DNA from: Bordetella parapertussis
GTDB taxonomy: Bacteria; Pseudomonadota; Gammaproteobacteria; Burkholderiales; SG8-41
Assembly: GCA_945893125.1 (NCBI GenBank)
Contig: CAMDDY010000001.1
Span: 1 to 45,307 of the forward strand
Length of the DNA: 45,307 nucleotides
Direction: 5' to 3'
Part shown: positions 4,813-45,044 of the stretch, piece by piece
How the letters are laid out: every line of letters begins with the position of its first letter
Numbering within the stretch: the stretch's first letter is position 1
Notes under the pieces: generated by a model
Seen by the model: only the letters and a program-made list of their open reading frames with translations
Database searches by the model: none
Told to the model about the DNA's origin: nothing
Made by a program: the position numbers and the translations under genes

Positions 4813-6693
<1,881 letters not shown>

Positions 6694-11796: not shown

Positions 11797-11827
11797 GGCG
11801 ATTGTAGGATTACTGGCCGTATGTATT

Positions 11828-11836
11828 TGTTATAAT
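11828..11836 (+). promoter_or_regulatory. extended -10 promoter candidate for the rml operon
   Basis: TGTTATAAT (TGnTATAAT with a perfect TATAAT hexamer) lies in the AT-rich waaC/rmlB divergent intergenic region, ~140 nt upstream of the rmlB start. No convincing -35 element. Confidence 0.4.
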
Positions 11837-11977
11837 TGATAAATCTTATTGTCTTTGTGATCCGGCCCACCTGCTGCACAGGTTAGCATCTGCGGATGGA
11901 AATGCCTACTTCTTGATTAACGATACGATGCACGACATGAACCATCTGCCACTGAGCACCCGCACCGGAGCGAAGCG

Positions 11978-23119: not shown

Positions 23120-23185
23120 GAAAGCGCGTGCGCGAAATGGAAGATTTGCGGTACCCGCGCGTGGCTATGCCAACCAGCGCGGGGA

Positions 23186-25937: not shown

Positions 25938-25984
25938 TGAATTTTCGCTGCCTCTCCCTGAATTAAGGGCGCAAGTTTAATTAC

Positions 25985-27528: not shown

Positions 27529-27543
27529 GGTTATCGTTACCCA

Positions 27544-29756: not shown

Positions 29757-29772
29757 AATGCGACCGTTGATG

Positions 29773-31329: not shown

Positions 31330-32327
31330 GGTCGATTTCCGAGGTATTCAAACCAAGTCTTAGTTGCGACCGAGATCGACTTGGGATCCCATAGCGGGGC
31401 ATCGCGCCAAACATCAATCTCCTGCATCATCATGGCGACGCCCTTTTCGAACGGCACTTGCGGCCGCCATCCCAAGTCCTTCTGGATCTTTTTGACGTCG
31501 GCCCAAGTGCAGTCCGGCTCGCCCGGGCGCTTGGGAATATATTCCTTCTCGCCACCAAGAAGGTCCACCAGCCGGTTCACCGACTGCGGGTTTCCCGCCC
31601 CCAAATTCCAGATCTCGCCCGTCTTGGCGGATTCCGCCGCAAGACGGAATGCCTCCGCAACATCAGTCACATACAGGAAATCCCGCGTCTGCGAGCCGTC
31701 GCCGACTACCGTGAACGACCGGCCGGCGAGCTTCTGCCGGAAAAACACGCCGAATACCGCGCCGTATGCGCCGGTCGTTCGCACGCGCGTCCCGTAAGCG
31801 TTGAATATCCGGACCGAATTCACCGGCAACCGGTAGACCTTGTGCCAGTGGAAGCAGGCAACCTCGCCCATCCATTTCGACAAGGCATACGGATAGTGCG
31901 GCTCGATCGGATGATCTTCGCGCGTGGGTGTCGCAGCCAGTCCGTAACAGGAGGAGGATGCCGCATAGACCAGTTTTCGCACTTTAGCGTCGCGCGCGCA
32001 TTCGAGCACCTTGACCGTACCCTGCACGTTCGCCGACATGTATTCGGCGGGATGCTCGATCGACGGCACGATATCGCCTATCCCGGCAAAATGAAAAACA
32101 TGACGCACGTCCCGAAACAGCGCGTCACCCGGCTCGAGATCGCGCACATCGCGCTTTTCAAGAGAGAAATCCGGATTGGCCGCTTGGTGCGCGACATTGC
32201 TCTCGCGGCCGCTGACGAAATTATCAACAGCCCTGACCCTGTATCCCTGGCCGAGCAGGTTGTCGACCATGTGACTGCCGATAAACCCCGCACCGCCGGT
32301 GACTACGGCGATGGGCTTGACTGTCAT
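31326..32327 (-). CDS. extended SDR, NDP-sugar epimerase/decarboxylase-like
   Basis: 333 aa. [11 protein letters not shown] and YPYALSKWMGE. ATGA overlaps on both sides. Confidence 0.85.
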   Translation of the reverse strand: MTVKPIAVVTGGAGFIGSHMVDNLLGQGYRVRAVDNFVSGRESNVAHQAANPDFSLEKRDVRDLEPGDALFRDVRHVFHFAGIGDIVPSIEHPAEYMSANVQGTVKVLECARDAKVRKLVYAASSSCYGLAATPTREDHPIEPHYPYALSKWMGEVACFHWHKVYRLPVNSVRIFNAYGTRVRTTGAYGAVFGVFFRQKLAGRSFTVVGDGSQTRDFLYVTDVAEAFRLAAESAKTGEIWNLGAGNPQSVNRLVDLLGGEKEYIPKRPGEPDCTWADVKKIQKDLGWRPQVPFEKGVAMMMQEIDVWRDAPLWDPKSISVATKTWFEYLGNRP

Positions 32328-33319
32328 TGAACGCCCAGCCTCTTCATGCGCTTGACGTTGTAATAAATATCGTCCGTCATGCTGTCCGGGAGCTTGCCGG
32401 CTTTGAATGCCTTACACAGATCGCGCACGGCATCCTCGATAGTATGCTTGGGCTTGAATCCGATCACACGGGCGATTTTGTCCGAATTGATGTGATAGGA
32501 GCGAATGTCGTCGCTGGGTGTGGTCACGAGTTCGATATCACCCTTCTCGGGATATTCTTCTTTTACTACTTTGCGAACCGCCTTCGCGATATCCATGATG
32601 CTCAGGTTCTGGTAACCGGCATTGAACGTCTGCCCTGCGATTTTCTCCGCCGGCAACTCGATCAGCAGTTGATACAGATCACACATGTCCTGGATATGCA
32701 GGTTGGGGCGTAACTGGCCACCGCCAAAAACCGTGATCTTATTGTTATTGACCGCGTGATTGGTGAGAATATTGACCGACAAATCCATGCGTGTGCGCGG
32801 GCTATAGCCGCACACTGTCGCTGGACGTATCGTAACGCACGTGAAGTCGGGTCCCTGATGCTTCCATAGCAGCGGCTCGCACATGCCCTTGTATTTGTTA
32901 TAGAGCGACACCGGCACCAGCGGATGATCCTCCGTCACGTCGGGTTTGTCGGAAACGCCATACACCGAGCTTGACGAGCAATAGACAAAGCGCTTGACTC
33001 CCGCTTTCTTGGCCGCAATAACCATCGGCTCGAATGCGTCCATATTGACACTGGTAGACAGCTTTTCGTCGAGCTCGAAACTCGCGTCGTTCGAAACGCA
33101 TGCAAGCGACAGCATGACATCAATGCCCTTGAACATGTCCGCATACTTGGCAATCTCGCGGATGTCCCCCGTGACGAGCTTCAGATTCTGGTGCTTCGGC
33201 AAGTGATTACCGTAAAGATAGGTGTCAAAAACGGTGACGTTGTAACCGGCGTTCAGCAGTTGCGGCGTGAGAACGCAACCCACATAGCCGGCACCGCCCG
33301 TGATGAGGACGTTTTTCAT
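32324..33319 (-). CDS. extended SDR, NDP-sugar epimerase/dehydratase family
   Basis: 331 aa. ITGGAGYVGC, SSSSVYG and LYNKYKGMCE (YxxxK). Confidence 0.85.
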   Translation of the reverse strand: MKNVLITGGAGYVGCVLTPQLLNAGYNVTVFDTYLYGNHLPKHQNLKLVTGDIREIAKYADMFKGIDVMLSLACVSNDASFELDEKLSTSVNMDAFEPMVIAAKKAGVKRFVYCSSSSVYGVSDKPDVTEDHPLVPVSLYNKYKGMCEPLLWKHQGPDFTCVTIRPATVCGYSPRTRMDLSVNILTNHAVNNNKITVFGGGQLRPNLHIQDMCDLYQLLIELPAEKIAGQTFNAGYQNLSIMDIAKAVRKVVKEEYPEKGDIELVTTPSDDIRSYHINSDKIARVIGFKPKHTIEDAVRDLCKAFKAGKLPDSMTDDIYYNVKRMKRLGVQ

Positions 33320-33349
33320 ATTAGCCTGTAGTTAAGTGAAAAGAATCAT

Positions 33350-34105
33350 TCAACCGGCGGCGCGGCGCGCTGCCGCAGGTGCTTCGCCGGCAATCGTGAA
33401 ACCGGCGGCGACCGCGTCGCGGCGAAACATCTCGACGGTTTCGAGCGAATAGTCGTCGAGGTTCTTGCCGACCAGATTAAGCTTGGCCAGCACGTCGTTG
33501 GTTACCGTGATGATGTGGCAGCCGATCGCATCCGCCTGAAAGATATTGAGCAGTTCACGCGGACTGGCCCAGATCAATTCAGCCTTGGGTTTCGACTTCA
33601 TAATCCTGACCGCTTGCGCCATCAACGGCACCGGGTCTACGCCGGTGTCGGCGACGCGGCCCGCGAAAACCGAAATGATCGCCGGAGTTCCCGGCACGAG
33701 GCAATCAGTCACCTGCTGAACCTGATCGAGCGTCATGATCGCGGTGACATTCACGGCAACACCGGCCTTGGACAACTCGCGAATCAACCGACCTGAAAAT
33801 TCACGCCGGGTATTAGTCACCGGAATTTTGACATTAACATTCTTACCCCAAGACGCAATCACCTTCGCCTGGCGCTCCATTTCGTCGAACTCGTCAGCAA
33901 ACACTTCCAGAGACACAGGCCGATCAGGCACTGCAGCCAACAGCTTGCGTGCGAACGCTTCGTATTCTGCGATCCCCACCTTACGCATCAACGTCGGATT
34001 CGTAGTGAATCCCTTGATCAACGGATTCGCGTACATTTTCATGATCCCGTCGAAATCGGCGCCGTCGGCGAAAATTTTGACGCGCAACTTATCGATGGAT
34101 GTCAT
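33350..34105 (-). CDS. transaldolase / fructose-6-phosphate aldolase family protein
   Basis: 251 aa. GFTTNPTL and the Schiff-base lysine context NVNVKIPVT. Confidence 0.85.
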   Translation of the reverse strand: MTSIDKLRVKIFADGADFDGIMKMYANPLIKGFTTNPTLMRKVGIAEYEAFARKLLAAVPDRPVSLEVFADEFDEMERQAKVIASWGKNVNVKIPVTNTRREFSGRLIRELSKAGVAVNVTAIMTLDQVQQVTDCLVPGTPAIISVFAGRVADTGVDPVPLMAQAVRIMKSKPKAELIWASPRELLNIFQADAIGCHIITVTNDVLAKLNLVGKNLDDYSLETVEMFRRDAVAAGFTIAGEAPAAARRAAG

Positions 34106-34125
34106 TGCGAATTTTTCCCCTGGAT

Positions 34126-34677
34126 TTAAACTAACGATAGAATCGAGCGTGTGGCGAAACCAAGCGTACGCGCATAATTATTAGGTATAGCCAACCGCAA
34201 CTCTCTATAGCCGCGATCGATGAAGAAAGTATAACATCCAACCGCTTGCCCAGCAACGATATCCCCCCACCGGTCACCCACCATGAAGCTCCGGGCAAGG
34301 TCGATATCCCACTCCTTGGCGGCCTCGACCAATAGCCCCGGTTTCGGCTTGCGGCACTCACATCCCTCGTTCTGCCGGTGAGGACACACCTTGATATCGT
34401 CTACCGGCAAACGATTCATGAGCTTGTCGTGCATAGCTTCAACGACGTTAACGTCGACGAGGCCGTTGCCAATATCCGGTTGATTGGTCACGACAATCAC
34501 CAGCAACCCTGCGTGTTTAAGGGACTGCACTGCGGGAATCACCCCGGGAAGCAGACGAAAATCCTCGACGCGGCGCGGCGCATAAGGTTTGCCATCGCGC
34601 ACTTCGCAGCGGTTGATTACGCCGTCGCGGTCGAGAAAAACCGCGCGGTGCTTACTGACAATTCGGGACTCCGGCAC
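34126..34677 (-). CDS. gmhB: HAD-IIIA sugar bisphosphate phosphatase (D,D-heptose 1,7-bisphosphate phosphatase-like)
   Basis: 183 aa. FLDRDGVIN nucleophile motif and GmhB-type Zn/Cys motif CPHRQNEGCECRKPKPG. Confidence 0.8.
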   Translation of the reverse strand: MPESRIVSKHRAVFLDRDGVINRCEVRDGKPYAPRRVEDFRLLPGVIPAVQSLKHAGLLVIVVTNQPDIGNGLVDVNVVEAMHDKLMNRLPVDDIKVCPHRQNEGCECRKPKPGLLVEAAKEWDIDLARSFMVGDRWGDIVAGQAVGCYTFFIDRGYRELRLAIPNNYARTLGFATRSILSLV

Positions 34678-34716
34678 GTTTGCGCAGGCGCGATGTAATA
34701 GATGACAAGCAACCGC

Positions 34717-35478
34717 CTAAGGCGGCGTAGTCTGGGTATTCATCCGGTGATACTCTTTTGCCACATCGGCTGTGCTGCCGGTGGCAATGATCCGGCCATG
34801 ATCCATCAGCACCGCCTTGTTGCACATCACATTGATCAAGGCATCGGAATGCGATGCGAGAACCAGTATGCTCGATCGCTCGATCAGCGCATCAATGCGT
34901 TTCTTTACGCGTTCCTGAAACCGTGCATCCCCGGCACCCAAGCCTTCGTCCAGCAACAGAATTTCCGGATTGATTGCGGTTGCAATCGCGAACCCAAGCC
35001 GCGTTAGCATTCCTGTGGAATAGGTACGCACGGGCAGCGAAAGATACTCGCCGAGTTCGGTAAACTCCTCGATTTCCGGAGTCTTGAGCCGGATCTCCTC
35101 GCGGGTCATGCCGAGATAGAGACCGCAAGTCAGGATGTTCTCGTAACCGGTATCGTCCATGCTAAGTCCAGGGGCCGTATTAAGCAATGGCGAAAGTCGG
35201 CCCTCGGTAATGACGCGGCCTGACAGAGGTTCGTACACGCCCGCCAGCACACGCAACAAAGTGGATTTGCCGGCGCCATTGTGGCCGATGAACCCGATGC
35301 GATCTCCGTGCGCGATCGTCAGAGAAATATCGTCCAGCGAGCGCACTGTCACCCGATCACTTTTCTTGCCTTCCCGCCTTATGAGACCACCCGCCCGTGA
35401 CAATAAAGCGGTGCGAAAGCTATGGTGCCCGTAGATCGGGAAATCGACCGTGACGTGCTCAAGAATAATGGATGCCAA
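34717..35478 (-). CDS. wzt: polysaccharide ABC exporter ATP-binding protein (NBD only, 253 aa)
   Basis: Walker A GHNGAGKST, signature YSTGM, Walker B ILLLDE. I place the start at TTG 35478, 7 nt downstream of GAGGAGGA. The 389-aa track ORF extends out of frame into wzm. Confidence 0.8.
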   Translation of the reverse strand: MASIILEHVTVDFPIYGHHSFRTALLSRAGGLIRREGKKSDRVTVRSLDDISLTIAHGDRIGFIGHNGAGKSTLLRVLAGVYEPLSGRVITEGRLSPLLNTAPGLSMDDTGYENILTCGLYLGMTREEIRLKTPEIEEFTELGEYLSLPVRTYSTGMLTRLGFAIATAINPEILLLDEGLGAGDARFQERVKKRIDALIERSSILVLASHSDALINVMCNKAVLMDHGRIIATGSTADVAKEYHRMNTQTTPP

Positions 35479-35498
35479 CTCGAAATCCTCCTCGTCCG

Positions 35499-36296
35499 TC
35501 AGAGCCAGTACGCCACTCGGCGACGGAAACGGCTGTAAATAAATAACGTCAGGCACCAGCCGATAATCGTGCCCAAAAACACCATCTTCCAGTTCAGGGC
35601 ACTCGCAGGCGTACCGAGTAAAGGTTTGCGCACGATTTCGATGTAATGGACCAGCGGGTTGAGGTCTACAAGAATGGTGGCTGCGCGTCCGCTGATCTGG
35701 CTGGGTGACCAGAAAACCGGTGTGACGAACATCAGTATCTGGAGAATGCTGATGACCAACTGCTGCATGTCGCGGTAGCGTGCGCCTATCATGCCGAGCA
35801 ACGTGACAACCCATACGCCGTTTAGGCAAATGAACAAAAGTCCGGGGATGACCTGCAAACTCGCCCAGGTAACAGGTATGCCACAAAACACCATAACCCC
35901 GATATACACGACGCTATTGTGTAAAAAAAGAATGAGATTTCTCCACACCACGGCGCAACTGAGCACCGTATACGGAAAGCGCATCGCCTTGATGAGCGCC
36001 TCGAATGAGATAAACGTCACGACGCCTTCAGCCATAATGGCGGAGATCAGGGTCCAGGTCAGCATTCCCGCAGCGACGAAAGGCAGATAATCGCTGACAT
36101 TCATTTTCCACAATTTCGCCCACACGATGCTGAATGAGACCATGAAGATGCCGAGGCTCAGCGTCGCCCAGAACGGGCCGAAAGAGGTGCGGCGATAGCG
36201 TGCCCGAACATCCGACCAGCCTTGACGCCCCCACATTCGCCACTGCGTCACACCTTCGCGGATATCAGTGAAAGCTAGATCATACTCGGGCTTCAT
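35499..36296 (-). CDS. wzm: polysaccharide ABC exporter permease (ABC-2 type)
   Basis: About 6 TM segments with N-terminal ...VRARYRRTSFGPFWATLS, typical of Wzm/KpsM-type permeases. ATG 36296 chosen; TTG 36323 is possible. Confidence 0.8.
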   Translation of the reverse strand: MKPEYDLAFTDIREGVTQWRMWGRQGWSDVRARYRRTSFGPFWATLSLGIFMVSFSIVWAKLWKMNVSDYLPFVAAGMLTWTLISAIMAEGVVTFISFEALIKAMRFPYTVLSCAVVWRNLILFLHNSVVYIGVMVFCGIPVTWASLQVIPGLLFICLNGVWVVTLLGMIGARYRDMQQLVISILQILMFVTPVFWSPSQISGRAATILVDLNPLVHYIEIVRKPLLGTPASALNWKMVFLGTIIGWCLTLFIYSRFRRRVAYWL

Positions 36297-36432
36297 CTTG
36301 ATCGTATCCAGAAAAGCCTGCAAAAATAATTGTGGTGGCTAGGGCCGCTTCCCGGCATTTCGGTGTTCGCTGTATTAAATTTTCCGTTCGTCCGCGCCCA
36401 CCACCGCAATATGCCCCCAGACAGCATACCTG

Positions 36433-37020
36433 CTACCACTTGGTAGCCTGCTGCTGCAGTATGGGATGGGAAACGAGGCAGTGCCAGACGACCGCCTGAA
36501 AAGCTTCCGTATGCGGAGTTACGTGCGCGGGATCAACGGTCGGAACAACTACGACGTGATCGCCAACCTTCTTGGTATAGCCACCATCGCGGCCGACGAC
36601 GCCGAAAATCTTCATACTACGTACTTTCGCGACTTCCAGCGCTCGCACAAGATTTGGACTGACGTGCTTTTCCAGATTACCGCCCCCCACGGAGAATATA
36701 AACACGCCATCCTTGTTGCACGCCTTGCTGGTTACCAGCCAGGCGGCAAAAACGGTTTCCCAACCTTCGTCATTGGTACGCGCAGTAAGTTCGGATACAT
36801 TATCCGTCGGGGCATAGGATTCAATACCACACAACTTGCGGAAGTCATTGACCGCGTGACTACAATTCCCCGCACTGCCACCAACGCCAAGAAAAAACAG
36901 CCTACCTCCTTCCGACCGAAGCTGAGCAAGGGCAGCGGCCATAGCCTCGATCGCAGAAACATCAAGCGTACGCGCAACTTCGGCAGCTTGATCCAGATAA
37001 GTTTTAACGTGGGAAGGCAT
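36433..37020 (-). CDS. gmhA: SIS-domain ketose-phosphate isomerase (sedoheptulose-7-phosphate isomerase-like, divergent)
   Basis: 195 aa. FFLGVGGSAGNCSHAVNDF, TNDEGWETVF and FSVGGGN align with GmhA motifs GNGGSHCDAMHF / GNDFGFNDIF / STSGNS. Confidence 0.75.
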   Translation of the reverse strand: MPSHVKTYLDQAAEVARTLDVSAIEAMAAALAQLRSEGGRLFFLGVGGSAGNCSHAVNDFRKLCGIESYAPTDNVSELTARTNDEGWETVFAAWLVTSKACNKDGVFIFSVGGGNLEKHVSPNLVRALEVAKVRSMKIFGVVGRDGGYTKKVGDHVVVVPTVDPAHVTPHTEAFQAVVWHCLVSHPILQQQATKW

Positions 37021-37176: not shown

Positions 37177-38376
37177 TCAGCGGCCTCTCCGGTTATGCAA
37201 AGGTCGCAGTTCTTGAATCATTCTGGCCGCACGCTGCGGGACGCGGTTCTTCAATTCTGATACAAGGTTGCGCCAAGGCACACGTCGCAAATGTACCTTG
37301 TCTGCCAGATCAAGCTGAAGTATCGGGTAGACCAAGGGTGCTGTTTTCTTTTCAACGGCAGACCAACTGCTGCCAAGTTCTCCTGAATGCAGTTTTATCG
37401 CTCTCGTAAAAAAGAGCCGGTGCAACGGATTGACGAGTGGCGAATAAGCCATCCCCTGTATATTTGCTATGTTTGGAGCGTTAGGCGTCAATGCAGCGAA
37501 TCTTTCGTCTCTACCTGTGAGAGAAAAAATCAACAGGTTATCCGAGTCCGTCTCAACGTGTATCTGTTCCCAGTCGGTTACGCTATACCCAAGAAAGTCC
37601 CCGTCGATGGTCGAAACCTCGAGGCTGGGGAAATCCTTTGCTCCGCGCATCGATACCAACATCGGGTGCAGATGGAACGCCCGTATCAACAGCCCCGTAT
37701 CTCCTGGCACGTTCCACGTGCACATATGGGGATGCACGGTAAATTGCGGGTGCTCCCAGTTATATCTCTGCACTTCCAAATGCAAGTGGCGCATACCAAA
37801 CTCGACCAGTTCGCGCCCGGAAAATGTGAGCGGGCCATCTCCGTCTAACTTGCCAGTTTGCTTAAGTTCTTCGTAAACGCTCTCCTGTATCAGCCTGAGC
37901 CCGGGTGTCATAACCGCCTGCTTGCCCGCTCTGGCCATCTGCTCCAAATGCCTGAAAGACCCATCCGATATCAGACAATCAGGACAAAGGTACACACAAT
38001 ATCCATCACCTTGGGCAGCAATCTCCGCTGCTGCGCGGTGCCCGCGGGCAGCCTTCAGATGGTAGGGAATGTTCTGTCCCATCCACGGCGAATCAACAAA
38101 TACCGGCTCGATGACCATGCACAGCTTTTTAAAAATCGGAGCGGCCTCGATACGCACGCGATCTGCTGGCGTGGTAAGGATCAGGAAGCGCGATTCCTTC
38201 AGGTTTGATAGCGCCGGTAGATTACCCGGGGACATGAACGTTGGTAGTGCGATGTCAAGGAACATATCGACATAGCTTTCGCCCCAGACCACCATTACAT
38301 AAAAGAACGGCAATGCCGTGTCGACTGAAGGCTGACCCATGTGCGCGCTATCGTTCATCTGTCCATTTCGTTGCAT
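37177..38376 (-). CDS. uncharacterised protein, paralog A (candidate novel glycosyltransferase)
   Basis: 399 aa. No family recognised. Clear homology to ORF 42185..43675 (segments listed in the findings). Start could be M7 or M13. Confidence 0.7.
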   Translation of the reverse strand: MQRNGQMNDSAHMGQPSVDTALPFFYVMVVWGESYVDMFLDIALPTFMSPGNLPALSNLKESRFLILTTPADRVRIEAAPIFKKLCMVIEPVFVDSPWMGQNIPYHLKAARGHRAAAEIAAQGDGYCVYLCPDCLISDGSFRHLEQMARAGKQAVMTPGLRLIQESVYEELKQTGKLDGDGPLTFSGRELVEFGMRHLHLEVQRYNWEHPQFTVHPHMCTWNVPGDTGLLIRAFHLHPMLVSMRGAKDFPSLEVSTIDGDFLGYSVTDWEQIHVETDSDNLLIFSLTGRDERFAALTPNAPNIANIQGMAYSPLVNPLHRLFFTRAIKLHSGELGSSWSAVEKKTAPLVYPILQLDLADKVHLRRVPWRNLVSELKNRVPQRAARMIQELRPLHNRRGR

Positions 38377-38535: not shown

Positions 38536-39543
38536 TCATATCTTACGTGCAATTAACGCCACGCCATTGCCCTGATCATTGAAATGTTCGAATTCCATTC
38601 CCGCCGCCACCACCATCTTGCGCAACTCATCAATCGAATGAAACAGAACGTGGGCCGGGAAATACGCATTCCAGTTATTCACCACATGCCGCGTGAACGG
38701 CAATTCCGGATTATAAAACAGCTTCATAAAGTGATAGTAGAAGAATCTCTGTAAATCGTAATTACCAGCCTTAATTCCCAGAAAAGGGATGTCCTCGGGA
38801 ACATCGATAGTCTGCTTCAATTCGCCCAAAGCTATCCCCAGTTTGGTCAGCGGCTTCATCGCTTCGAAGGCTTCGTCCGGCGCCATCTTTGAAATCACCG
38901 AACGTATGTAGTCGTCGGTGACCTGGCGAATCGGCTTCTGTTGCTGGTAGACCCATGAAATAATCCGGCCGCCCTTTTTTAGCACCCTGGCCAGATCCTT
39001 GAGCGCAGCCCCCATGTCCGGCGTGTAGTGCAGGACACCCGGACAGAAAACAAAGTCGGCCGACGCAGCTGGAAAGGGCAGGCTTTCAATCTTTGCTTGC
39101 ACAAGACCAACCACCATGTTTTCTTTGGCGAAATCCTGTTTGGCCTGTTCGATGGCCAAAGACATATCAATAGCGATATACCTCGTCTTGCGCAGGGAGT
39201 CTCCGAAATAAGCGCGCCCTGCAATGCCCGAGCCACAGCCGATATCGAAGACCACGTCATTTGCTTTGACTTCTTTCTGCACGCGCTTCTGATAATCCGG
39301 AAACATGACTTCGAACAATTCCTGCTGAAACTTGAAGCTCGGCGCATCGTCGTATGCCCCGGGCATGCGCCAATGAAGACCGTAGAACGCCGAAAGCGGA
39401 TCCTCTTTTTCCATCAAAGAGGCCTGCCTCAAGACCCCGTCGCGCACCACGAACGCGGTGTCGTTTACTTTGATCGCGCCGCCCTCTGCAGGCAACTTTT
39501 GACCAAGAGCGCTTTCAACTACGGAGAGAGACATCTGTGACAT
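38536..39543 (-). CDS. class I SAM-dependent methyltransferase
   Basis: 335 aa. Motif I is VVFDIGCGSGIAG, and LKKGGRI is the post-II motif. Confidence 0.8.
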   Translation of the reverse strand: MSQMSLSVVESALGQKLPAEGGAIKVNDTAFVVRDGVLRQASLMEKEDPLSAFYGLHWRMPGAYDDAPSFKFQQELFEVMFPDYQKRVQKEVKANDVVFDIGCGSGIAGRAYFGDSLRKTRYIAIDMSLAIEQAKQDFAKENMVVGLVQAKIESLPFPAASADFVFCPGVLHYTPDMGAALKDLARVLKKGGRIISWVYQQQKPIRQVTDDYIRSVISKMAPDEAFEAMKPLTKLGIALGELKQTIDVPEDIPFLGIKAGNYDLQRFFYYHFMKLFYNPELPFTRHVVNNWNAYFPAHVLFHSIDELRKMVVAAGMEFEHFNDQGNGVALIARKI

Positions 39544-39864
39544 GTTTTCTGGTGTCCTTTCGGGTTATCGAGATTTTACTGAGATTCGCGTTATTCAGTG
39601 CTAACAATCTGGCGTCATCGCGCGATGTGGCGCTCAGATTTTTCCATTGTATTTCCGCTTTCGTGGGAATGGCAAGGTTGCAGAAATTTTGTACACACCT
39701 GCGCGAGTGTCAACAGTCGTCGAAAAAATATCAGATACCAGAGGAATGGCATTATTGAATCAGGAGCAATGCATGGTGCAAAAAAAATTGACGTCACTAA
39801 CCTACCATTGGCAGTTTGACTTACGGCGCAGTCCGGCGAGAAAATCGCTTCCAAAAACCCTTGG

Positions 39865-40923
39865 TTACGCCATCGCGCCCTCAGTGATTTGAGGCGGTGC
39901 AGGGTGTCCGCCCAACAGCTTGCCCTGCCAGTTAGTCAGCCGGGCAATTTTGTTGTAATAGGTAAATTCTGGCGATTTGCGGATCAACAGGCCGTCACGC
40001 ATCTCTTCCTCGAAGGAGTGCTGTGCCCAACCATTGCACGGCTTGCAAAACGGCACTTTGTCCCACTGATCGGTTTCATGGTAATAGCGAAGTTTCGCAA
40101 ACTCTTCACCCTGCCATACCGCCTTGACACCATTTTCAAACACATTGCCCAGATTCGTGGCTTTGAAGCCGTCAAGGCAGCAGACCGTTACTTTCCCGTC
40201 ATTATGGATAGGCATCGTGTTGTAGATAGCGGGGCAAGGCAGGCGCTTTTCGGGAGTCGCCATGTCTGGATAGCTGCCATTCAGAAATATCAATCCGATG
40301 CGCACGACGTCCACGACACCGACCCAACGCGCAACGAACGCATCAGTCTCATGGCGATTGTCATCCTGCTTAGTAAAAGACACCCCGATACGCGGATGGA
40401 TCGCGTCGCCCCGCACCTTGAGCATTCTGAATACGGAACGTTCTATGCGTTCCAGCTTGTGAATGCCGCGAACTTTCTTCAGTGTCTCGCGCGTTACGGC
40501 ATCAACGCTGAACATCACGGAATCCACTTTCTGCTCAACGAAAAATTGCGCCAAGTCTTCATCGAGCGTAAGGCCGTTGGTGTTCATGGCCACCGACATC
40601 CCACCCGCTTTCATCTTTGTGATCTGCTCCCGCAGGTTGGGGGCGAGCAGCGGCTCGCCATACATATTCGGCTGAATCAGTGGCTTTGCCGCCATCAATT
40701 CATCAAGAATCTTGCGCGACCCCTCGAAGTCCATGACCCCGGCTACAGAGTCGGATTCGTTTTCTTCCGAACCCCAGACGGGGCACATCGGGCAGCGAAG
40801 ATTGCATTTGGTGGCAAGATCAAGCAGCACTCGCGGTGGCAACTCGGGTACGGGCAGCGGCGTCCATTTGTGCTTGGGGTCAACCCAGCTTGCTGTAGAC
40901 CAGTCACGCATGAAGAGCTCCAT
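39865..40923 (-). CDS. radical SAM enzyme with truncated SPASM/twitch-like C-terminal Cys motif
   Basis: 352 aa. CNLRCPMC (CxxxCxxC) at residues 40-47. C-terminal CPAIYNTMPIHNDGKVTVC (C-x12-G-x4-C) and CKPC. Confidence 0.85.
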   Translation of the reverse strand: MELFMRDWSTASWVDPKHKWTPLPVPELPPRVLLDLATKCNLRCPMCPVWGSEENESDSVAGVMDFEGSRKILDELMAAKPLIQPNMYGEPLLAPNLREQITKMKAGGMSVAMNTNGLTLDEDLAQFFVEQKVDSVMFSVDAVTRETLKKVRGIHKLERIERSVFRMLKVRGDAIHPRIGVSFTKQDDNRHETDAFVARWVGVVDVVRIGLIFLNGSYPDMATPEKRLPCPAIYNTMPIHNDGKVTVCCLDGFKATNLGNVFENGVKAVWQGEEFAKLRYYHETDQWDKVPFCKPCNGWAQHSFEEEMRDGLLIRKSPEFTYYNKIARLTNWQGKLLGGHPAPPQITEGAMA

Positions 40924-41022
40924 TTGTTACCATATGTCGCATTAGCAAGAATAGCCGTTCGGCCTCATTCATTCGAGTAAATAGCTGAGTTTTATATATT
41001 ATAAGTGGAATAGGCAGCGATT

Positions 41023-42180
41023 TTACGCCCGTGGAATGCCGTACGCCACCGTTTCAATCACGCCCCCATCATGCTGGCGCAGATACAGACGGTAATCCGG
41101 ATCGATTTTCCGGAACGCAAAAGGCACCTCCCATAGATCGGAAGGCCGATGATAGGCCGAGATCGCGAGCCTGGGATGCCAGCGGCGGATCGACTCCGCG
41201 CCTCCGCGCAAGGCGTCGAGTTCGGCCCCTTCGATGTTCATTTTGATGAAGCTTACGCGCTGTCCGGCAAGAATTTCGTCGAGACCCACGACGTTAATCC
41301 TGCATTCTCCATCGTCGGAGATAATTGCGCCCCGTGACCCATCGTTGTTAAATCGCAATTCTGCCTTGGCGCTGTGCAAACCGTAATTGAGCGGCTCTAC
41401 TCGCGGTAAAGCCGCGAGGTTTTTTTGCAGGCGCTTGAATGTCTGCGGATCGGGTTCGAATGCAAGGACGCGTTCGTACTTGCCATGAACGTGGTCGATA
41501 AACATGCGCACAGAATCGCCGTCGTATGCCCCGCCATCCACATACACTTCGTCATCCTGGAATTCAACCAATCCGGAAAACCCGTAAAGGTCCCAATCAA
41601 TAACTTCCGCCAGCAATGCGGCATCGAGCGTTAAACGATATCCCAGGACGCGATCAAGGACTCTCACCGACTCTTCATCATGGAGTTGTTCGGCCAGTTC
41701 CAGGTAGCGCGGCCGATTGTTGAAGATATCGTCAACAAAACCGTCATAAAACATGTGCGGCTGAAACATATCCGGAGCAAGTACCTGAAGCAAAGCAAAA
41801 GGCGCAACCGGAAATCCCATCGCCCGCAACATCAGCGTGCCGCCGAGCACTCTGTGGGATGCAATGATGACCGGCACCGACCGATCGAGCGACCCGATTG
41901 CGTCTGACGGAACGACCCGATGTTTCCCAATGGCAAGGCCGCGTTTACCAGCGTCATTATCGTACACACCTGCCACCTCTATGCCCTGTTTGGCACAAAT
42001 CTCTGCCAGACGCCTGCCCTCGGCACCAGCGCCAAGAATAGCAAGACGTTCGGGAAGCCCGCGACGCATAAATGGGTAGCGCTCACGCAACGAATCCTTC
42101 AGCGATTGCAGCGAAGGGATCCTCGATATTTCGTGCAGCCACCTTTGGCTTGACGCATGGTCAGTGTTTAACTTATTCAT
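41023..42180 (-). CDS. FkbM-family methyltransferase with N-terminal Rossmann-like domain
   Basis: Trimmed to MNKLNTDH... at 42180, 4 nt after the upstream stop. N-terminal LAILGAGAEGRRLA. C-terminal FkbM-like VYVDGGAYDGDS...IKMNIEGAELDAL. Confidence 0.8.
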   Translation of the reverse strand: MNKLNTDHASSQRWLHEISRIPSLQSLKDSLRERYPFMRRGLPERLAILGAGAEGRRLAEICAKQGIEVAGVYDNDAGKRGLAIGKHRVVPSDAIGSLDRSVPVIIASHRVLGGTLMLRAMGFPVAPFALLQVLAPDMFQPHMFYDGFVDDIFNNRPRYLELAEQLHDEESVRVLDRVLGYRLTLDAALLAEVIDWDLYGFSGLVEFQDDEVYVDGGAYDGDSVRMFIDHVHGKYERVLAFEPDPQTFKRLQKNLAALPRVEPLNYGLHSAKAELRFNNDGSRGAIISDDGECRINVVGLDEILAGQRVSFIKMNIEGAELDALRGGAESIRRWHPRLAISAYHRPSDLWEVPFAFRKIDPDYRLYLRQHDGGVIETVAYGIPRA

Positions 42181-42184
42181 AACG

Positions 42185-43675
42185 CTATTTTTCTCTGACG
42201 ACAATCGAGATTTTCCCCTCCCGCTCGTTGCTGCTTCCACCGACGTAACGATTATTCCCCTCGGCGCTTCCCGCACGAGCCTGGAACAAGCGTATGCGCT
42301 TCAATATCGGCCGAACATAACGTTTTGGTACAAATTTCAATATTAGAACAAGCCATTGACGCCCCAAGCTGCCAAGCACGGGCCCAACCCACCATCCAAA
42401 GACAGCTCGCAGGATTCGGCTCCTAGCCCTAAGCAGCGCGGCAATAATAATCCGAGGAAATCTCTGGATTTTCGACTTAATGACCATGAAAAAAAGCCCT
42501 GCGACGCTACTTGGATAGTTATTCCAATAGTCTTTATGTCGTTGAAAAATATCGAGATAAACACGCTGGCCAAACCGCTCGATATTTCCCATTGCTATGG
42601 CTCGTTCAACTATTGCGCTAGACGTTTTCGCCATTTCGATCGATTCTGGCGCCAATCCGTCGCCATGAATATGGCAAGGCAGCCGATAAGCCAACCGTCT
42701 AAATTCGTCGCACCCCTGACTGAATAGATAACGGTTTATTTCGTAAATTCGATTCTCTTTGCCACGGAAACTGCTGTTTATGGGCCGATCCTGGAAAGGC
42801 AAATAAGTAAGTTCGGATTCCGGCGTTAGTGATAAGTAAAATACTTCATCTGAATCGGTAGAATAATACAAATCTTCCTTAAGACTTCCCTGATAGAAGG
42901 TGTTGTAAATATATTTACCGTCTGTGGTGTCGTTGTCGAGAACATCATCATTGTAGTTTGGGACCTTGGCGAAATCTCCAAACAATAAGCCCCAGCTCAT
43001 GCTATGAATGACAATTGCTTTTCGTTCCGGTACTGGCCAGTAGCACCACAATGGATAGTCACCAAAATATGGCGCGTCAAACTCATAGCTACGAATTTCG
43101 GAATGTAATGAGCGCCGCGCCAATTCGGCCAGGAAGCGCGGCTTAAGATCCATTGGATCATCAGGCCGCAAGAAACCCTGCGCCTCAAGCGATTCCACAA
43201 CAGGCTCTGTCGCATAGCGAAACACTGGGGCCAGAACAGCTTTTTTTCCTTGCCTTGCTTTATCAATAATAAAGGCAATCGTCCCGTCCGAAACCAGTAA
43301 ATCGGGCGCGACGAAGCCGGCCCATGCCCGGTCTGCTAGCGCTTTTCGCGCTGCGAGACGATGTCCTGTCGACATATGCAACATCACTCGATGCCTGCCG
43401 GTTATCTCAGCCGATAGCGCCTTATTCTCATCAGGGTATCCAATATCAATGAGTACGGGCTCTACATATTGGCGCATTTGCTCAAACAATGGCCGACCTT
43501 CCAGCGCGTTCCAGTCGTCCCTCGTCGTAGAGATTAGGAATTTGGAACCGGGCACGCCACGCAATATAGGGAGATTGTTTGGCGAAAGCAAAGAACTTAG
43601 GCAAAAGGAATAAAAATGCTCTGTGAAGAGCTTCCCCCAGAAAGTAATCATCAGGTAATACGGACTCGAACTCAT
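42185..43675 (-). CDS. uncharacterised protein, paralog B, with basic/hydrophobic C-terminal extension (candidate novel glycosyltransferase)
   Basis: 496 aa. Homologous to ORF 37177..38376 over ~290 aa. Visibly AT-richer than its neighbours. Confidence 0.7.
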   Translation of the reverse strand: MSSSPYYLMITFWGKLFTEHFYSFCLSSLLSPNNLPILRGVPGSKFLISTTRDDWNALEGRPLFEQMRQYVEPVLIDIGYPDENKALSAEITGRHRVMLHMSTGHRLAARKALADRAWAGFVAPDLLVSDGTIAFIIDKARQGKKAVLAPVFRYATEPVVESLEAQGFLRPDDPMDLKPRFLAELARRSLHSEIRSYEFDAPYFGDYPLWCYWPVPERKAIVIHSMSWGLLFGDFAKVPNYNDDVLDNDTTDGKYIYNTFYQGSLKEDLYYSTDSDEVFYLSLTPESELTYLPFQDRPINSSFRGKENRIYEINRYLFSQGCDEFRRLAYRLPCHIHGDGLAPESIEMAKTSSAIVERAIAMGNIERFGQRVYLDIFQRHKDYWNNYPSSVAGLFFMVIKSKIQRFPRIIIAALLRARSRILRAVFGWWVGPVLGSLGRQWLVLILKFVPKRYVRPILKRIRLFQARAGSAEGNNRYVGGSSNEREGKISIVVREK

Positions 43676-43769
43676 CGCGCGTCAAAAACCCATTTCCAGC
43701 TCAACGTGCAGAAAGAAACATAGTTACGGGCTTCATTACGTAAAGCTTCATCTCATGCCCTCTTCGCAA

Positions 43770-45044
43770 TCACGCGGAGCGAATGGAAATTGTGAGCTTA
43801 CGTTTACCGGAAACGCCGAGTGCCCGGTCAACCTTGATCAAGGCGGCAACGGTATCTGCCGCTTCTTCTTCGGTATAGTTCTCGTTGACATAAAGGCAAA
43901 AGCTGCGGTCGCGGTTGCTGACCGCCTGCGGCGTGCCAAATGCGTCGGCGAGATGCGGACGCACCCAGGGCCACTCGGACACCACATATTGATAGTGCGG
44001 GTTGAGACCGATGCCTTCAGCAAGCACAGCCTTGGCAATCGAGATCTTGTCGCACGTCGCGCGCGCCGGGTCTACAAATACCGGCAATATGAATGGCGAA
44101 TCAGTCGGGCGCCATGGCAACAGCGAGAACATGGTATTGGTTTCTACCAGCATCGATGCCAACTCCGATACGAATGCCGCCCGCCGCACGATGGTATCGC
44201 GCAGACGGCGTAGGGAGGCGATCCCGATGGCGCATGACAATTCGTCGTTGTTCCAGTTAAGCGCAGGGAACAGGAACGTCTCGGGATTGCGATCGTCGAA
44301 GTCCGGCTGCCAACGCGGCTTACCGCGGTCGGCATGCGCCAGTGCGTTGCGAAAGATGTCCAAGTCCCGGGAATAGACAATGCCGCCGCAGCCGCCGCTC
44401 ATATGGCCTTTACGGTACATGGTCGAGAACGCGGCAATATCCCCGAACGTGCCAACCTGGCGTCCGAATATCTGCGCGCCGTGCGATTGGCTGCAATCTT
44501 CGATGACGCGTACTCCGCGCGCATGCGCCTCGGCAACGATGCGATCGACATCCGTGGCTTGCCCGGTGGCATGAACCACCAGCACCGCGGAAACCGCGGG
44601 TGTCATGCGCGCCAGCACCTGCTCGACACCCATGTTGTAGTCGTCGGGACGCGTATCCGCCAAACGCGGCCGTAATCCATTCAGAATAATCGCACTGATG
44701 CAACCGGGATCAGTAATCGGCGAGACGATAACTTCGCTGCCTTTGGGTAAATTCAGGGCGGCAATGGCAAGATAAACGGAAGCGGTTCCGGTGGAAACCG
44801 AATCCGCATAGCCGCCACCCATCATGGCAACAAACTCGTCTGTATAGCGCTTCTCGAACGGCCCCTGGTACCCCGGATCCACATCTTTGCCGCGATAGAA
44901 CTCAATCGCCTCTTCGAGCATCGCGACCTCGGCATCGCCGAACGCAAACCTTGGCGGCATGGGATGCGTCCGCACCGGCTGCCCGCCGTCCACCGCGAGC
45001 TTCTTGTCTGCAATGCGGTTTTCCAGATCTGTCGTTCCTATCAT
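43770..45044 (-). CDS. DegT/DnrJ/EryC1/StrS-family PLP-dependent sugar aminotransferase
   Basis: 424 aa. DSVSTGTASVYLA and the FSTMYRKGHMSGGCGG lysine region. First gene of the minus-strand block. Confidence 0.85.
   Translation of the reverse strand: MIGTTDLENRIADKKLAVDGGQPVRTHPMPPRFAFGDAEVAMLEEAIEFYRGKDVDPGYQGPFEKRYTDEFVAMMGGGYADSVSTGTASVYLAIAALNLPKGSEVIVSPITDPGCISAIILNGLRPRLADTRPDDYNMGVEQVLARMTPAVSAVLVVHATGQATDVDRIVAEAHARGVRVIEDCSQSHGAQIFGRQVGTFGDIAAFSTMYRKGHMSGGCGGIVYSRDLDIFRNALAHADRGKPRWQPDFDDRNPETFLFPALNWNNDELSCAIGIASLRRLRDTIVRRAAFVSELASMLVETNTMFSLLPWRPTDSPFILPVFVDPARATCDKISIAKAVLAEGIGLNPHYQYVVSEWPWVRPHLADAFGTPQAVSNRDRSFCLYVNENYTEEEAADTVAALIKVDRALGVSGKRKLTISIRSA

Follow-up and report, generated by a model that had tools for sequence, protein, structure and literature searches.

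Which enzymes would build the glycan chain in a locus that holds a Wzm/Wzt exporter, a pathway for an unusual sugar, and no recognisable glycosyltransferase? The question is raised by the window analysed here, a stretch of bacterial DNA of 45,307 nucleotides from a metagenome contig. A preliminary description of this sequence had singled out two paralogous proteins, ORF A and ORF B, as the only candidates, with a guess at a GT-A fold and no named family to which they could be assigned.

A Wzm/Wzt Block without a Recognisable Glycosyltransferase

ORF A and ORF B lie within a contiguous minus-strand block (22649-45044) of 22 genes, all of which were assigned, and neither Pfam nor NCBIfam recognised a glycosyltransferase among them. 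The earlier claim that no other transferase is encoded there is thus true of this block, which leaves ORF A and ORF B as its sole glycosyltransferase candidates. In the window as a whole, just two glycosyltransferases can be recognised, both of the LPS core: WaaA and a GT9 heptosyltransferase (Table 1), the genes of which, like rmlBADC, are about 11 kb away from the block. The wzm and wzt genes are on the same strand as ORF A and at a distance of 0.85 kb, an adjacency that fits a Wzm/Wzt system. The product of wzt has neither a C-terminal carbohydrate-binding domain nor any other extra domain.

The exporter genes are flanked by an NDP-heptose module, and the block includes, in addition, sugar-tailoring genes, which are conserved alongside the ORF A/ORF B family in other loci, as well as genes interleaved with ORF A and ORF B. 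The FkbM and class I methyltransferases encoded among the latter could be either chain terminators or sugar-tailoring enzymes. As to the identity of the sugar, bradyrhizose, caryose or caryophyllose would be speculation, and a literature search gave no gene-level information on them.

No initiating phosphoglycosyltransferase, chain terminator of the Wzt-carbohydrate-binding type or WaaL ligase was recognisable in the 45-kb window. As initiating and ligase genes are often encoded elsewhere, their absence from the window neither excludes nor proves a Wzm/Wzt system. Moreover, the locus could continue, since the window stops 263 bp past the DegT gene. Promoter and terminator scans near the genes gave nothing above chance, and the only result of the Rfam scan was the thiC TPP riboswitch.

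Table 1. Features of the window discussed in the text; positions are those of the whole stretch, and residue conservation is the percentage over 305 domain instances.
Feature	Position	Strand	Details	Basis
WaaA (LPS core)	9569-10855
GT9 heptosyltransferase (LPS core)	10834-11796
Sugar-tailoring genes	22649..29822	-	GFO/IDH/MocA, UDPG-dehydrogenase-like, SDR, methyltransferase, SDR dehydratase, NUDIX	Pfam
Split transketolase (within tailoring genes)	24103-24978 + 23186-24106	-		Pfam
NDP-heptose module flanking wzm/wzt	29773..37020	-		Pfam + NCBIfam
HldE-like, reversed domain order	29773-31329	-	adenylyltransferase residues 28-164, kinase 194-507
Two SDRs	32324-33319, 31326-32327	-		Pfam/NCBIfam
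Transaldolase	33350-34105	-		Pfam/NCBIfam
GmhB-like	34126-34677	-		Pfam/NCBIfam
wzt, ABC ATPase	34717..35478	-	253 aa, TTG 35478, GAGGAGG Shine-Dalgarno	PF00005
wzm, ABC-2 permease	35499..36323	-		PF01061, E 4e-13
GmhA-like SIS	36433-37020	-		Pfam/NCBIfam
ORF A	37177..38376	-	399 aa; A-type member of unannotated GT-A-like family (predicted fold)	ORF list
ORF A basic C-terminal tail	37180..37359	-	residues 340-399 (last 60 aa); K+R 14 vs D+E 5
ORF A Asp277-Ser278-Asp279 in 'ETDSD'	37540..37548	-	second acidic motif; 91%, 81%, 93%
ORF A Asp258 in 'TIDGD'	37603..37605	-	Asp in 98%
ORF A His199 in 'HLHxE'	37780..37782	-	His in 98%
ORF A Asp133 in 'CPD'	37978..37980	-	Asp in 97%; between model strands 126-130 and 134-136
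Genes interleaved with ORF A/ORF B	38536..45044	-		Pfam + NCBIfam
Class I methyltransferase	38536-39543	-
Radical SAM/SPASM	39865-40923	-
FkbM methyltransferase	41023-42204 or 42276	-	alternative starts
ORF B	42185..43675	-	496 aa; B-type paralogue, long basic helical C-terminal extension	NJ tree, BLASTP
ORF B basic helical C-terminal extension	42188..42592	-	residues 362-496 (last 135 aa); K+R 26 vs D+E 7
ORF B Asp274-Ser275-Asp276 in 'STDSD'	42848..42856	-		aligned column, codons checked
ORF B Asp252 in 'TTDGK' (= ORF A Asp258)	42920..42922	-		aligned column, codon checked
ORF B Asp125 in 'APD' (= ORF A Asp133)	43301..43303	-	between model strands 118-122 and 126-128	aligned column
DegT aminotransferase	43770-45044	-

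Two Paralogues of a Large Family without a Name

Both open reading frames were confirmed at the positions previously given for them, and both are encoded on the minus strand. Their proposed paralogy was borne out by BLASTP, which aligned them with 85/287 identities (30%) and 47% positives at an E value of 5e-42, far beyond chance, and every aligned segment quoted in the preliminary description is present in the two proteins. ORF A may start at Met7 (ATG at 38358, with a weak GGA upstream), as does homologue P0004, which would give a protein of 393 aa.

As had been stated earlier, no named family fits either protein. Scanning of Pfam-A at E ≤ 0.1, of NCBIfam and of PHROGs gave no match to ORF A or ORF B, and when the sequences of the PDB were searched with the two proteins, by phmmer and by profile, nothing meaningful came up. 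None of these four collections yielded a confident profile match to a non-transferase family either. The about 140 homologues collected by homology searches were likewise without names and, except for TPR repeats in P0211, without a precomputed Pfam domain; an exact cluster look-up for names of the relatives returned none. A profile search extended the family to 4,990 cluster representatives at E ≤ 1e-3, again none of them named.

Two or three copies of the domain are present in 54/258 family proteins examined. Fusion partners include GT2 with TPR, GT41 with TPR, methyltransferase, sulfotransferase and APH-type kinase domains, the usual partners in multi-module enzymes that assemble glycans for ABC transporters. 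According to the preliminary description, two divergent copies might serve a disaccharide repeat or an adaptor-plus-polymerase arrangement. Copies of the A-type and of the B-type do form separate clades in an NJ tree, and a pair of one A-type and one B-type copy recurs in loci of Burkholderiales and Legionellaceae. Fused two-domain relatives, however, are of the A+A (41) or B+B (6) kind and never A+B (0), and Rosetta-stone support for a complex of A with B was rejected for that reason.

Predicted Structures Point to a GT-A-Like Fold

The guess at a GT-A fold was checked by Foldseek searches with confident AlphaFold2 models of ORF A (pLDDT 91.7, pTM 0.87) and ORF B (pLDDT 89.5, pTM 0.79), and it found support, as the PDB matches of both models are headed by GT-A glycosyltransferases. 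The ORF A model matched 120 PDB chains at E ≤ 1e-3, and the top 35 were all glycosyltransferases: the best were TarP (4.7e-6), RmlT, AvpGT and SpsA (E of 5e-6 to 3e-5), and K4CP, LARGE1 and LH3 were also among its glycosyltransferase matches. The best matches of ORF B were TarP, Chs1, hyaluronan synthase (HAS) and RmlT. Foldseek probability was 1.00, at E values of about 5e-6 to 1e-4, for both models against TarP, RmlT, SpsA, AvpGT, K4CP, Chs1 and HAS. The best local superpositions of these predicted models cover about 148-160 columns at an RMSD of 3.5-4.4 Å (148 columns and 3.6 Å for RmlT on ORF A) and are confined to the N-terminal ~150 residues; the fold match is distant (TM 0.25-0.33), and longer alignments have an RMSD above 10 Å. 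What superposes on known GT-A enzymes is an N-terminal Rossmann-like alpha/beta domain, as would be expected in the predicted models of members of the GT-A superfamily. A search of BFVD found one true family member (TM 0.75/0.87), the other matches being mostly viral GT-A enzymes. Two recently described glycosyltransferase families were considered and rejected: GT137 (Klebsiella O4 ORF7), which is GT-B-like, and WrtF, which ranks only 46th in the ORF A Foldseek list.

The best structural neighbours of both models are GT2-type GT-A enzymes (TarP 6h21, RmlT 8bz7, SpsA 1h7l and AvpGT 9jn3). Like them, the models of ORF A and ORF B show an N-terminal strand-helix alternation, and at the DXD position of GT2 enzymes, behind strand 4, the two proteins carry a single conserved Asp; a further likeness may be that these four neighbours are cytoplasmic enzymes with polymer or lipid-linked acceptors. 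Unlike in GT2 enzymes, strand 1 is followed by W-G, strand 2 ends with Thr where Asp is usual, P-D replaces D-x-D, and there are further family motifs (H, TIDG and DSD), while the C-terminal half (~residues 165-355) superposes poorly. Neither protein belongs to CAZy GT2 by way of PF00535 (Glycos_transf_2), as no Pfam match was found at the threshold given above, and the comparison of the family alignment with a small GT2 alignment (six sequences) by hhalign revealed no significant link (probability 0.6%, E 0.095). In that non-significant alignment, P-D133 was placed on the GT2 'DD'.

ORF A and ORF B represent a new family inside a known fold, as the fold is read from predicted structures. The superposed N-terminal half, which would bind the nucleotide and to which the confident structural overlap is confined, is common to nucleotidyltransferases too, as if the GT-A-like fold could serve a biosynthetic step here: a sugar-1-phosphate nucleotidyltransferase or cytidylyltransferase re-activating the tailored sugar, or an NDP-sugar-modifying enzyme. 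RmlA and GMPPA/GMPPB are indeed among the Foldseek matches of ORF A at about 1e-4, the NUDIX hydrolase of the locus could release a sugar in need of re-activation, and the HldE domain is the only recognisable nucleotidyltransferase in the block. However, sugar nucleotidyltransferases enter the ORF A list at rank 36, below the 35 glycosyltransferases, and membership in the RmlA/GlmU type was rejected, as V-W-G-x-x-Y and not G-x-G-T-R follows strand 1 and no Pfam NTP_transferase or CTP_transf match was found. Moreover, the presence of two to six family paralogues per locus, together with tandem domains and fusions, typifies glycan-assembly modules and not a single activation step. We therefore consider a role in sugar activation unlikely.

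The identity of the best neighbours brings in another alternative, namely that ORF A and ORF B transfer sugar-phosphate or alditol-phosphate, and that a phosphodiester-linked polymer is built or decorated, as by Stealth, TagF or FKRP-type enzymes. In its favour, TarP and RmlT both modify poly-ribitol-phosphate, the cytidylyltransferase-like domain of the HldE-like protein weakly matches glycerol-3-phosphate cytidylyltransferase (E 9e-6), and in one relative the fusion partner is an APH/choline-kinase-like domain. What TarP and RmlT transfer, however, are sugars and not phosphates; there is no Pfam similarity to the Stealth, TagF and LicD families, and no gene of the locus specifically points to an alditol-phosphate donor. 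Phosphate transfer by the two proteins thus appears improbable.

Conserved Residues and Basic C-Terminal Tails

The acidic segment D-x-x-x-S-D-G, to which attention had been drawn earlier, turned out to be conserved in part: its first Asp (D133 in ORF A and D125 in ORF B) is near-invariant across the 305 domains, whereas the Asp of SDG is not. In the predicted topology, D133/D125 falls into the loop that joins strands 4 and 5, the DXD position of GT-A enzymes; the motif at this loop is P-D-x-x-x-S-D, with no strict D-x-D and with a second acid that is not invariant. Going by this modelled position, Asp133 is a candidate for the metal- and nucleotide-sugar-binding Asp. The first Asp of 'TIDGD' proved to be conserved as well, in contrast to the second, which is Lys in ORF B. 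Conserved in the family, and retained by both paralogues, are also R161, R188, H199, D258 and D277/D279 (the codons of the residues in Table 1 were checked). By their conservation, H199, D258 and D277/D279 are candidate catalytic residues of an acceptor subdomain, in which Asp258 might be a catalytic or acceptor-side acid.

A precedent of a GT-A-fold protein that is required, yet has no transferase activity, is STM0725, the non-catalytic partner of STM0726 in Salmonella T1 antigen synthesis (PMC11294581). As in the case of STM0725, we deal here with proteins of predicted GT-A fold in a surface-glycan locus whose role is not readable from the fold, and one or both paralogues might be a non-catalytic scaffold or chaperone for another transferase. 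The absence of a strict DXD motif and the presence of other unannotated conserved proteins in some related loci are consistent with that. Nevertheless, unlike the inactive STM0725 clade, in which the catalytic base is missing, the two paralogues retain every conserved acidic, His and Arg position, D133 included, and the block has no other candidate transferase that they could assist. A purely structural role is, in our view, very improbable.

The C-termini, noted as basic in the preliminary description, are indeed basic in both proteins (Table 1), and both tails are amphipathic, although no transmembrane segment was found in ORF A or ORF B. The ORF A tail, with a high hydrophobic moment at residues 372-390 and model helices at 360-390, is probably a peripheral membrane-binding helix. 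The ORF B extension, with a KD19 maximum of 1.28 and long model helices (391-435 and 451-473), may have a membrane role as well.

Gene Neighbourhoods of the Family

Co-occurrence was counted over 23 loci, each at least 15 kb long. The most frequent companions of the family are ThDP enzymes (18 loci) and the SDR pair (16 loci), followed by wzt (13 loci), wzm (12 loci) and reversed HldE (11 loci), so that the search for co-occurrence with wzm/wzt, suggested earlier, found these genes in 12-13/23 loci. The family is usually found without a Pfam-recognisable glycosyltransferase in its loci: six of them (L003, L004, L005, L012, L026 and L030), like the window block, combine wzm/wzt and a full sugar pathway with no recognisable glycosyltransferase, within ~10 kb. 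It is not always the sole candidate, because GT2 is also encoded in L013-15, L018/19, L022, L028 and L029, and further unannotated proteins are encoded in other related loci (e.g., L012 16122-17282). A Walker A/ABC-signature regex detected no ABC ATPase in L007, L010, L017 and L018; despite the empty regex of L018, tblastn revealed a wzt-like match in L018/L019. In one related locus, Wzx takes the place of Wzm/Wzt. As the predicted fold is glycosyltransferase-like and the family travels with the unusual-sugar pathway, ORF A and ORF B are probably the missing chain-building enzymes.

Multi-module polymerases of ABC-transporter-dependent systems include WbbM (GT111+GT8), K4CP and Klebsiella O7 ORF6 with two GT2 modules (PMC11231755). 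The systems with the ORF A/ORF B family resemble them in having at least two transferase modules each, separate or fused in one chain, in the fusions to TPR and to methyltransferase or kinase domains of the terminator type, and in the adjoining wzm/wzt genes. They differ in that the ORF A/ORF B module family is used by none of those systems, and in that no coiled-coil ruler was identified and the window Wzt is devoid of a carbohydrate-binding domain; polymerase activity would be ascribed to ORF A and ORF B by analogy.

A conserved pathway for an unusual heptose-derived or C-branched sugar, with GmhA, two SDRs and reversed-domain HldE as its core, is linked to the family. By published annotation, this core recurs in the phase I LPS region of Coxiella burnetii, a determinant of virulence and vaccine antigenicity. 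The O-antigen region of this bacterium, cbu0674-cbu0704, is annotated to encode phosphoheptose isomerase (CBU0674), SDRs (CBU0676 and CBU0677) and a reversed-domain HldE (CBU0678), without which full-length LPS is not made and for which a probable origin in Alphaproteobacteria was reported (PMC5843353, PMC13252051). Compared by published annotation only, the window shares the gene order SDR, SDR, reversed HldE, and it also has a GmhA gene. Loci in Legionellales MAGs have the heptose/SDR module together with the ORF A/ORF B family. A link of the family itself to the C. burnetii phase I region would be by analogy, as a lead from the literature.

Proposed Role of ORF A and ORF B

Our preferred reading, which we hold with moderate confidence, is that ORF A and ORF B, which diverged long ago, both belong to a large unannotated glycosyltransferase family with a GT-A-like fold, predicted to be active, and that they would most likely transfer the heptose-derived sugar of the locus. 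From the paralogy of the two proteins, their predicted fold class, the residues conserved in them and where these lie in the predicted topology, and the recurrent neighbourhood, we infer the following course of catalysis, including donor, acceptor, metal use, membrane association and division of labour. The neighbouring genes would make a nucleotide-activated heptose-derived sugar, starting with transaldolase, GmhA, reversed HldE and GmhB, and the sugar would be tailored by the SDRs, oxidoreductase, dehydrogenase, aminotransferase, methyltransferases, split transketolase and radical SAM enzyme. ORF A and ORF B would act on the cytoplasmic face of the inner membrane, anchored by their basic C-terminal helices, and would bind the nucleotide-sugar with the N-terminal Rossmann-like half, where D133/D125 probably works together with His199 and a divalent cation. 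The sugar would then be moved onto a growing glycan linked to undecaprenyl diphosphate, with D258 and D277/D279 on the acceptor side, and the finished chain would be exported by Wzm/Wzt. The two paralogues would most likely serve two different linkages or two different acceptors.

If the members are active transferases, they represent a glycosyltransferase family of ~5,000 clusters at 50% identity that is invisible to annotation based on Pfam, NCBIfam and PDB. Many wzm/wzt glycan loci seemingly without a glycosyltransferase would then become interpretable, and it could be tested directly which enzymes put such O-antigens together.

Family Members outside Wzm/Wzt Loci

Three phage-like contigs encode three copies of the family each, beside homologues of GmhA, transaldolase and HldE. 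These contigs have no wzm/wzt, and the copies are downstream of genes for RNR, a dCTP-deaminase-like protein and ParB_N, as if the family were composed of glycosyltransferases whose acceptor is not a lipid-linked O-polysaccharide but a protein, DNA or a small molecule. The Wzx-containing locus and a plasmid copy described below would fit such acceptors, and so would the fact that phage GT-A DNA glycosyltransferases, which decorate 5hmC and have the motifs R...DDD...EDY/F, have TarP as their best PDB match, at 1e-5 to 1e-6 (bioRxiv 10.1101/2023.12.21.572611). Like those 5hmC writers, the phage-borne family members are GT-A-like in prediction and sequential in a cluster with sugar-pathway genes, as the writers often are. 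However, the family was rejected as a member of the phage 5hmC glycan writers, as its motifs differ and the 9-10 kb around the phage copies showed no gene of the C5-methyltransferase, TET/5mYOX or thymidylate-synthase type. Furthermore, in the window the two genes and wzm/wzt belong to a single block, all on one strand, which is 11 kb away from waaA, GT9 and rmlBADC, and wzm/wzt accompany the family in about half of the loci counted above. For ORF A and ORF B, an acceptor other than a lipid-linked O-polysaccharide seems quite improbable. Heptose is among the sugars added in the phage 5hmC study, and the heptose-adding enzyme there is a GT-B protein (bioRxiv 10.1101/2023.12.21.572611).

Triplets of the family in phages, each set accompanied by heptose genes, suggest a possible new phage glycosylation system. 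A wider proposal, possible but rather doubtful, is that ORF A and ORF B belong to a new CAZy-level family for bulky heptose-derived or C-branched (ThDP-extended) sugars, which supplies the missing polymerising enzymes of a widespread O-antigen cassette, maybe including that of C. burnetii phase I, and which was captured by phages, as three sequential copies along with an NDP-heptose pathway of their own, for the glycosylation of some phage target, for instance DNA or proteins of the virion. INPHARED phage genomes gave no match with ORF A and the phage-type member P0249 as queries. Among PLSDB plasmids there was a single distant match, from Solidesulfovibrio, and the copy on this plasmid has pseB, pseC and a Maf-like gene as neighbours.

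ORF A and ORF B are paralogues of a large family without a name

Both ORF A and ORF B proved to be real open reading frames, and BLASTP aligned them over 287 residues (30% identity, 47% positives, E 5e-42), bearing out the paralogy over ~290 aa that the preliminary description had proposed; every aligned segment quoted there was present. That their family is unrecognised also held: neither protein had a match in Pfam-A (E<=0.1), NCBIfam or PHROGs, or among PDB sequences searched by phmmer or with the family profile. The start of ORF A contains three in-frame ATGs (Met1, Met7 and Met13). A homologous protein, P0004, begins at the Met7 equivalent, and the pLDDT of ORF A is below 50 for residues 1-11 and averages 64 for residues 11-20.

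For ORF A, a word-indexed search returned 65 relatives, for ORF B 16, and its profile version gave 74, all of them unnamed; the only Pfam domains in the word-indexed relatives were TPR repeats in one protein, P0211. When 1.84 billion cluster representatives were searched exhaustively with a profile, 4,990 scored E<=1e-3, and 2,657 of these reached E<=1e-30. In the literature searched we found no paper describing this family, which appears new to the libraries searched; neither the fold class nor the logic of the pathway is new. A-type and B-type members formed separate clades in a neighbour-joining tree, and the A+B pair was also found in one Burkholderiales MAG and four Legionellaceae/Legionellales MAGs.

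Coordinates of features in the window and in other loci carrying the family
Feature	Sequence	Positions	Strand	Details
ORF A	window	37177-38376	minus	399 aa
Three ATGs of ORF A	window	38340-38376	minus	
ORF B	window	42185-43675	minus	496 aa
Gene block	window	22649-45044	minus	
Split transketolase	window	23186-24978	minus	ThDP-dependent
HldE-like enzyme	window	29773-31329	minus	adenylyltransferase domain first, kinase second
Two SDRs	window	31326-33319	minus	
wzt ORF as mechanically called	window	34717-35886	minus	389 aa, overlaps wzm; likely start TTG 35478
GmhA-like	window	36433-37020	minus	
waaA, GT9 heptosyltransferase, rmlBADC	window	9569-15370		7-13 kb from block; WaaA and GT9 at 9.5-11.8 kb
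BacA/UppP	window	3361-4188	minus	
TPP riboswitch	window	6735-6834	minus	69.6 bits; upstream of thiC (4813-6684)
ThDP-dependent C-C bond-forming enzyme	L012	12350-14447		
ThDP-dependent C-C bond-forming enzyme	L025	13617-15336		
ThDP-dependent C-C bond-forming enzyme	L030	1-590		
Second conserved protein	L012	16122-17282		
Second conserved protein	L005	15234-16436		
Interleaved family paralogues	L026	5710-16859		metagenome
Three paralogues in a row	L024	9001-12550		
Three paralogues in a row	L025	9001-12404		
Three paralogues in a row	L027	9989-13108		
Two proteins with a C-terminal family domain	L023	106235-111892		plasmid pDCAR1, NZ_CP026539

Predicted fold, conserved residues and domain architecture

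The AlphaFold2 model of ORF A, built from an alignment that also included ORF B and 46 homologues, reached a pLDDT of 91.7 and a pTM of 0.87, that of ORF B 89.5 and 0.79, and the order of elements was identical in both. In a Foldseek search of the PDB, 120 chains matched the ORF A model at E<=1e-3. Ranks 1-35 were glycosyltransferases throughout, including TarP, RmlT, AvpGT, SpsA, K4CP, LARGE1 and LH3/ColGalT1, and the ORF B model matched TarP, chitin synthase Chs1, hyaluronan synthases and RmlT. Thus, GT-A glycosyltransferases led for both predicted models, in keeping with the GT-A fold suggested earlier. The fold match is distant (TM 0.25-0.33), its low-RMSD superposition of ~150 columns covering the N-terminal nucleotide-binding half, and no link to GT2 was detectable at the sequence-profile level (hhalign probability 0.6%). 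Sugar nucleotidyltransferases did occur among the matches of ORF A, as would suit a biosynthetic nucleotidyltransferase or a sugar-modifying enzyme, but the first of them came at rank 36 (~1e-4), which argues against that assignment.

In 305 domain instances aligned to the family HMM, with codons verified, the conserved positions were, in ORF A/ORF B numbering, W31-G32/W13-G14 (93%), N52/N34 (87%), T68/T50 (90%), D133/D125 (97%), G151/G143 (92%), R161/R153 (93%), R188/R180 (92%), H199/H191 (98%), D258/D252 (98%), D277/D274 (91%) and D279/D276 (93%). Since ORF A and ORF B retain all of these, neither looks degenerate. This conservation argues against their being non-catalytic partners, a role for which STM0725 provides a precedent (PMC11294581). 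In both models, D133/D125 lies in the short loop between strands 4 and 5 (126-130 and 134-136 in ORF A; 118-122 and 126-128 in ORF B). This loop is the DXD site of GT2/GT-A enzymes (PMC11231755), although the family has P-D where theirs is D-x-D. Of the acidic D-x-x-x-S-D-G segment pointed out previously, the first Asp is this conserved residue, whereas the Asp of SDG is not invariant. The C-termini, noted before as basic, are strongly basic, helical tails without a transmembrane segment in both proteins, and would fit peripheral membrane binding.

Two domain copies were present in 51 of 258 family sequences examined and three copies in 3. The Pfam fusion partners were GT2+TPR, GT41+TPR, class I methyltransferase (four cases), sulfotransferase, APH/choline-kinase-like and SPRY domains, as expected of glycan-assembly modules. 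Multi-domain fusions were A+A or B+B and never A+B, so the fused proteins by themselves give no argument for an A-B complex.

The gene block around the pair

The block is gene-dense, and all its genes were assignable. Their order is DegT aminotransferase, ORF B, FkbM methyltransferase, radical SAM/SPASM enzyme, class I methyltransferase, ORF A, GmhA-like isomerase, wzm, wzt, GmhB-like phosphatase, transaldolase, two SDRs, HldE-like enzyme, GFO/IDH/MocA oxidoreductase, UDPG-dehydrogenase-like enzyme, SDR, methyltransferase, SDR dehydratase, split transketolase and NUDIX hydrolase. From its likely start, preceded by GAGGAGG, Wzt has 253 aa and lacks a C-terminal carbohydrate-binding domain. The window is a metagenome contig ending 263 bp past DegT. 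The block holds no recognisable glycosyltransferase, so the statement that there is no transferase besides ORF A and ORF B is true of it; the two recognisable glycosyltransferases that the window does contain, WaaA and a GT9 heptosyltransferase, lie outside it, beside rmlBADC. With rmlBADC, dTDP-rhamnose can be made, and no rhamnosyltransferase was recognisable in the window. The undecaprenyl-diphosphate phosphatase gene BacA/UppP is relevant to lipid-carrier recycling, yet probably housekeeping. A TPP riboswitch is unrelated to ORF A and ORF B.

By published annotation, the block resembles a Coxiella burnetii region that phase II variants have lost or carry in mutated form, in which CBU0674 is a phosphoheptose isomerase (GmhA in the window), CBU0676 and CBU0677 are two SDRs and CBU0678 is an HldE with "an unconventional, reversed domain arrangement", the last three in the same order as in the window; phase I LPS requires CBU0678 (PMC5843353). 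A 2026 preprint inferred an alphaproteobacterial origin of CBU0678 and called its role unclear (PMC13252051). In Legionellales MAG loci, this module occurred together with both A-type and B-type members.

Genomic context in other loci

Other loci were collected by exact look-up and pattern scans and compared with the window proteins. In 23 loci, each 15 kb or longer and phylogenetically not independent, the family co-occurred with a ThDP-dependent enzyme (split transketolase, E1 alpha/beta or TPP_enzyme) in 18, an SDR pair in 16, wzt in 13, wzm in 12, reversed HldE (adenylyltransferase domain before kinase domain) in 11, a GFO oxidoreductase in 10, transaldolase in 9 and GT2 in 5, so the co-occurrence with wzm/wzt proposed as a check was indeed seen. 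L028 and L029 contain GT2, and L029 has a Wzx flippase instead of Wzm/Wzt. Among loci in which every neighbour had Pfam annotation, the majority (L003, L004, L005, L012, L024, L025, L026 and L030) had no Pfam glycosyltransferase within ~10 kb of the family. This recurrence of sugar pathway, exporter and family with no known transferase is the strongest contextual argument for a transferase function.

Family copies commonly number 2 to 3 per locus, and 5 to 6 in L026, where they are interleaved with the same sugar module as in the window, one copy being split and another interrupted by an ISAZ013 transposase. Transfer of sugar-phosphate, or action on a non-lipid acceptor, would be further roles for the pair; these, like the two rivals weighed with the fold, are made less likely by copy number, fusions, hit ranking and residue conservation. 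On the best-supported reading, which we consider moderately likely, the pair are glycosyltransferases of the Leloir type and belong to an unannotated GT-A-like family. The neighbouring genes would make a heptose-derived, probably C-branched, nucleotide sugar, from which ORF A and ORF B would build a lipid-linked glycan to be exported by Wzm/Wzt. The ThDP-dependent C-C bond-forming enzyme accompanying the family suggests donor sugars with a two-carbon branch or extension.

In Legionellaceae loci and L005 (also L008, L011 and L020), a second conserved protein of ~386-400 aa adjoins wzm. It has no Pfam or NCBIfam match, and the window lacks it; it may represent a further assembly component that has gone unrecognised. 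On the Solidesulfovibrio carbinolicus plasmid, two 660-aa "hypothetical proteins" with a C-terminal family domain lie on either side of a TIGR04372 glycosyltransferase; the same cluster contains pseB, pseC, radical SAM enzymes, methyltransferases, a transketolase C-terminal gene and a Maf-like (MptE-like) gene.

Phage copies

Shorter members (~300-330 aa; P0242, P0249) occur in phage-like contigs of ~95-100 kb, and likewise in one IMG/VR contig, with genes for Mu-type portal, Gp77, RNR, dCTP-deaminase-like protein, RNase H, ParB_N and Acb1. Each contig has a triplet of paralogues in a row, directly upstream of homologues of GmhA (55% identity to the window protein), transaldolase (45-47%), reversed HldE (54%) and SDR (51%), and thus the link between the family and a heptose-type pathway holds without Wzm/Wzt. 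These unexpected triplets, the family's size and its association with an unusual sugar pathway, which may connect it to the Coxiella O-antigen by published annotation, give the family its significance. Near the phage copies, we saw no gene of the TET/5mYOX or thymidylate-synthase type. Among predicted viral structures, A0A6J5PWU5 (uncultured phage) was the sole true family member (TM 0.75/0.87), and the other matches were mostly viral GT-A enzymes. Published phage GT-A DNA glycosyltransferases match TarP at 1e-5 to 1e-6, a match shared with the family, but their motifs are different (bioRxiv 10.1101/2023.12.21.572611).
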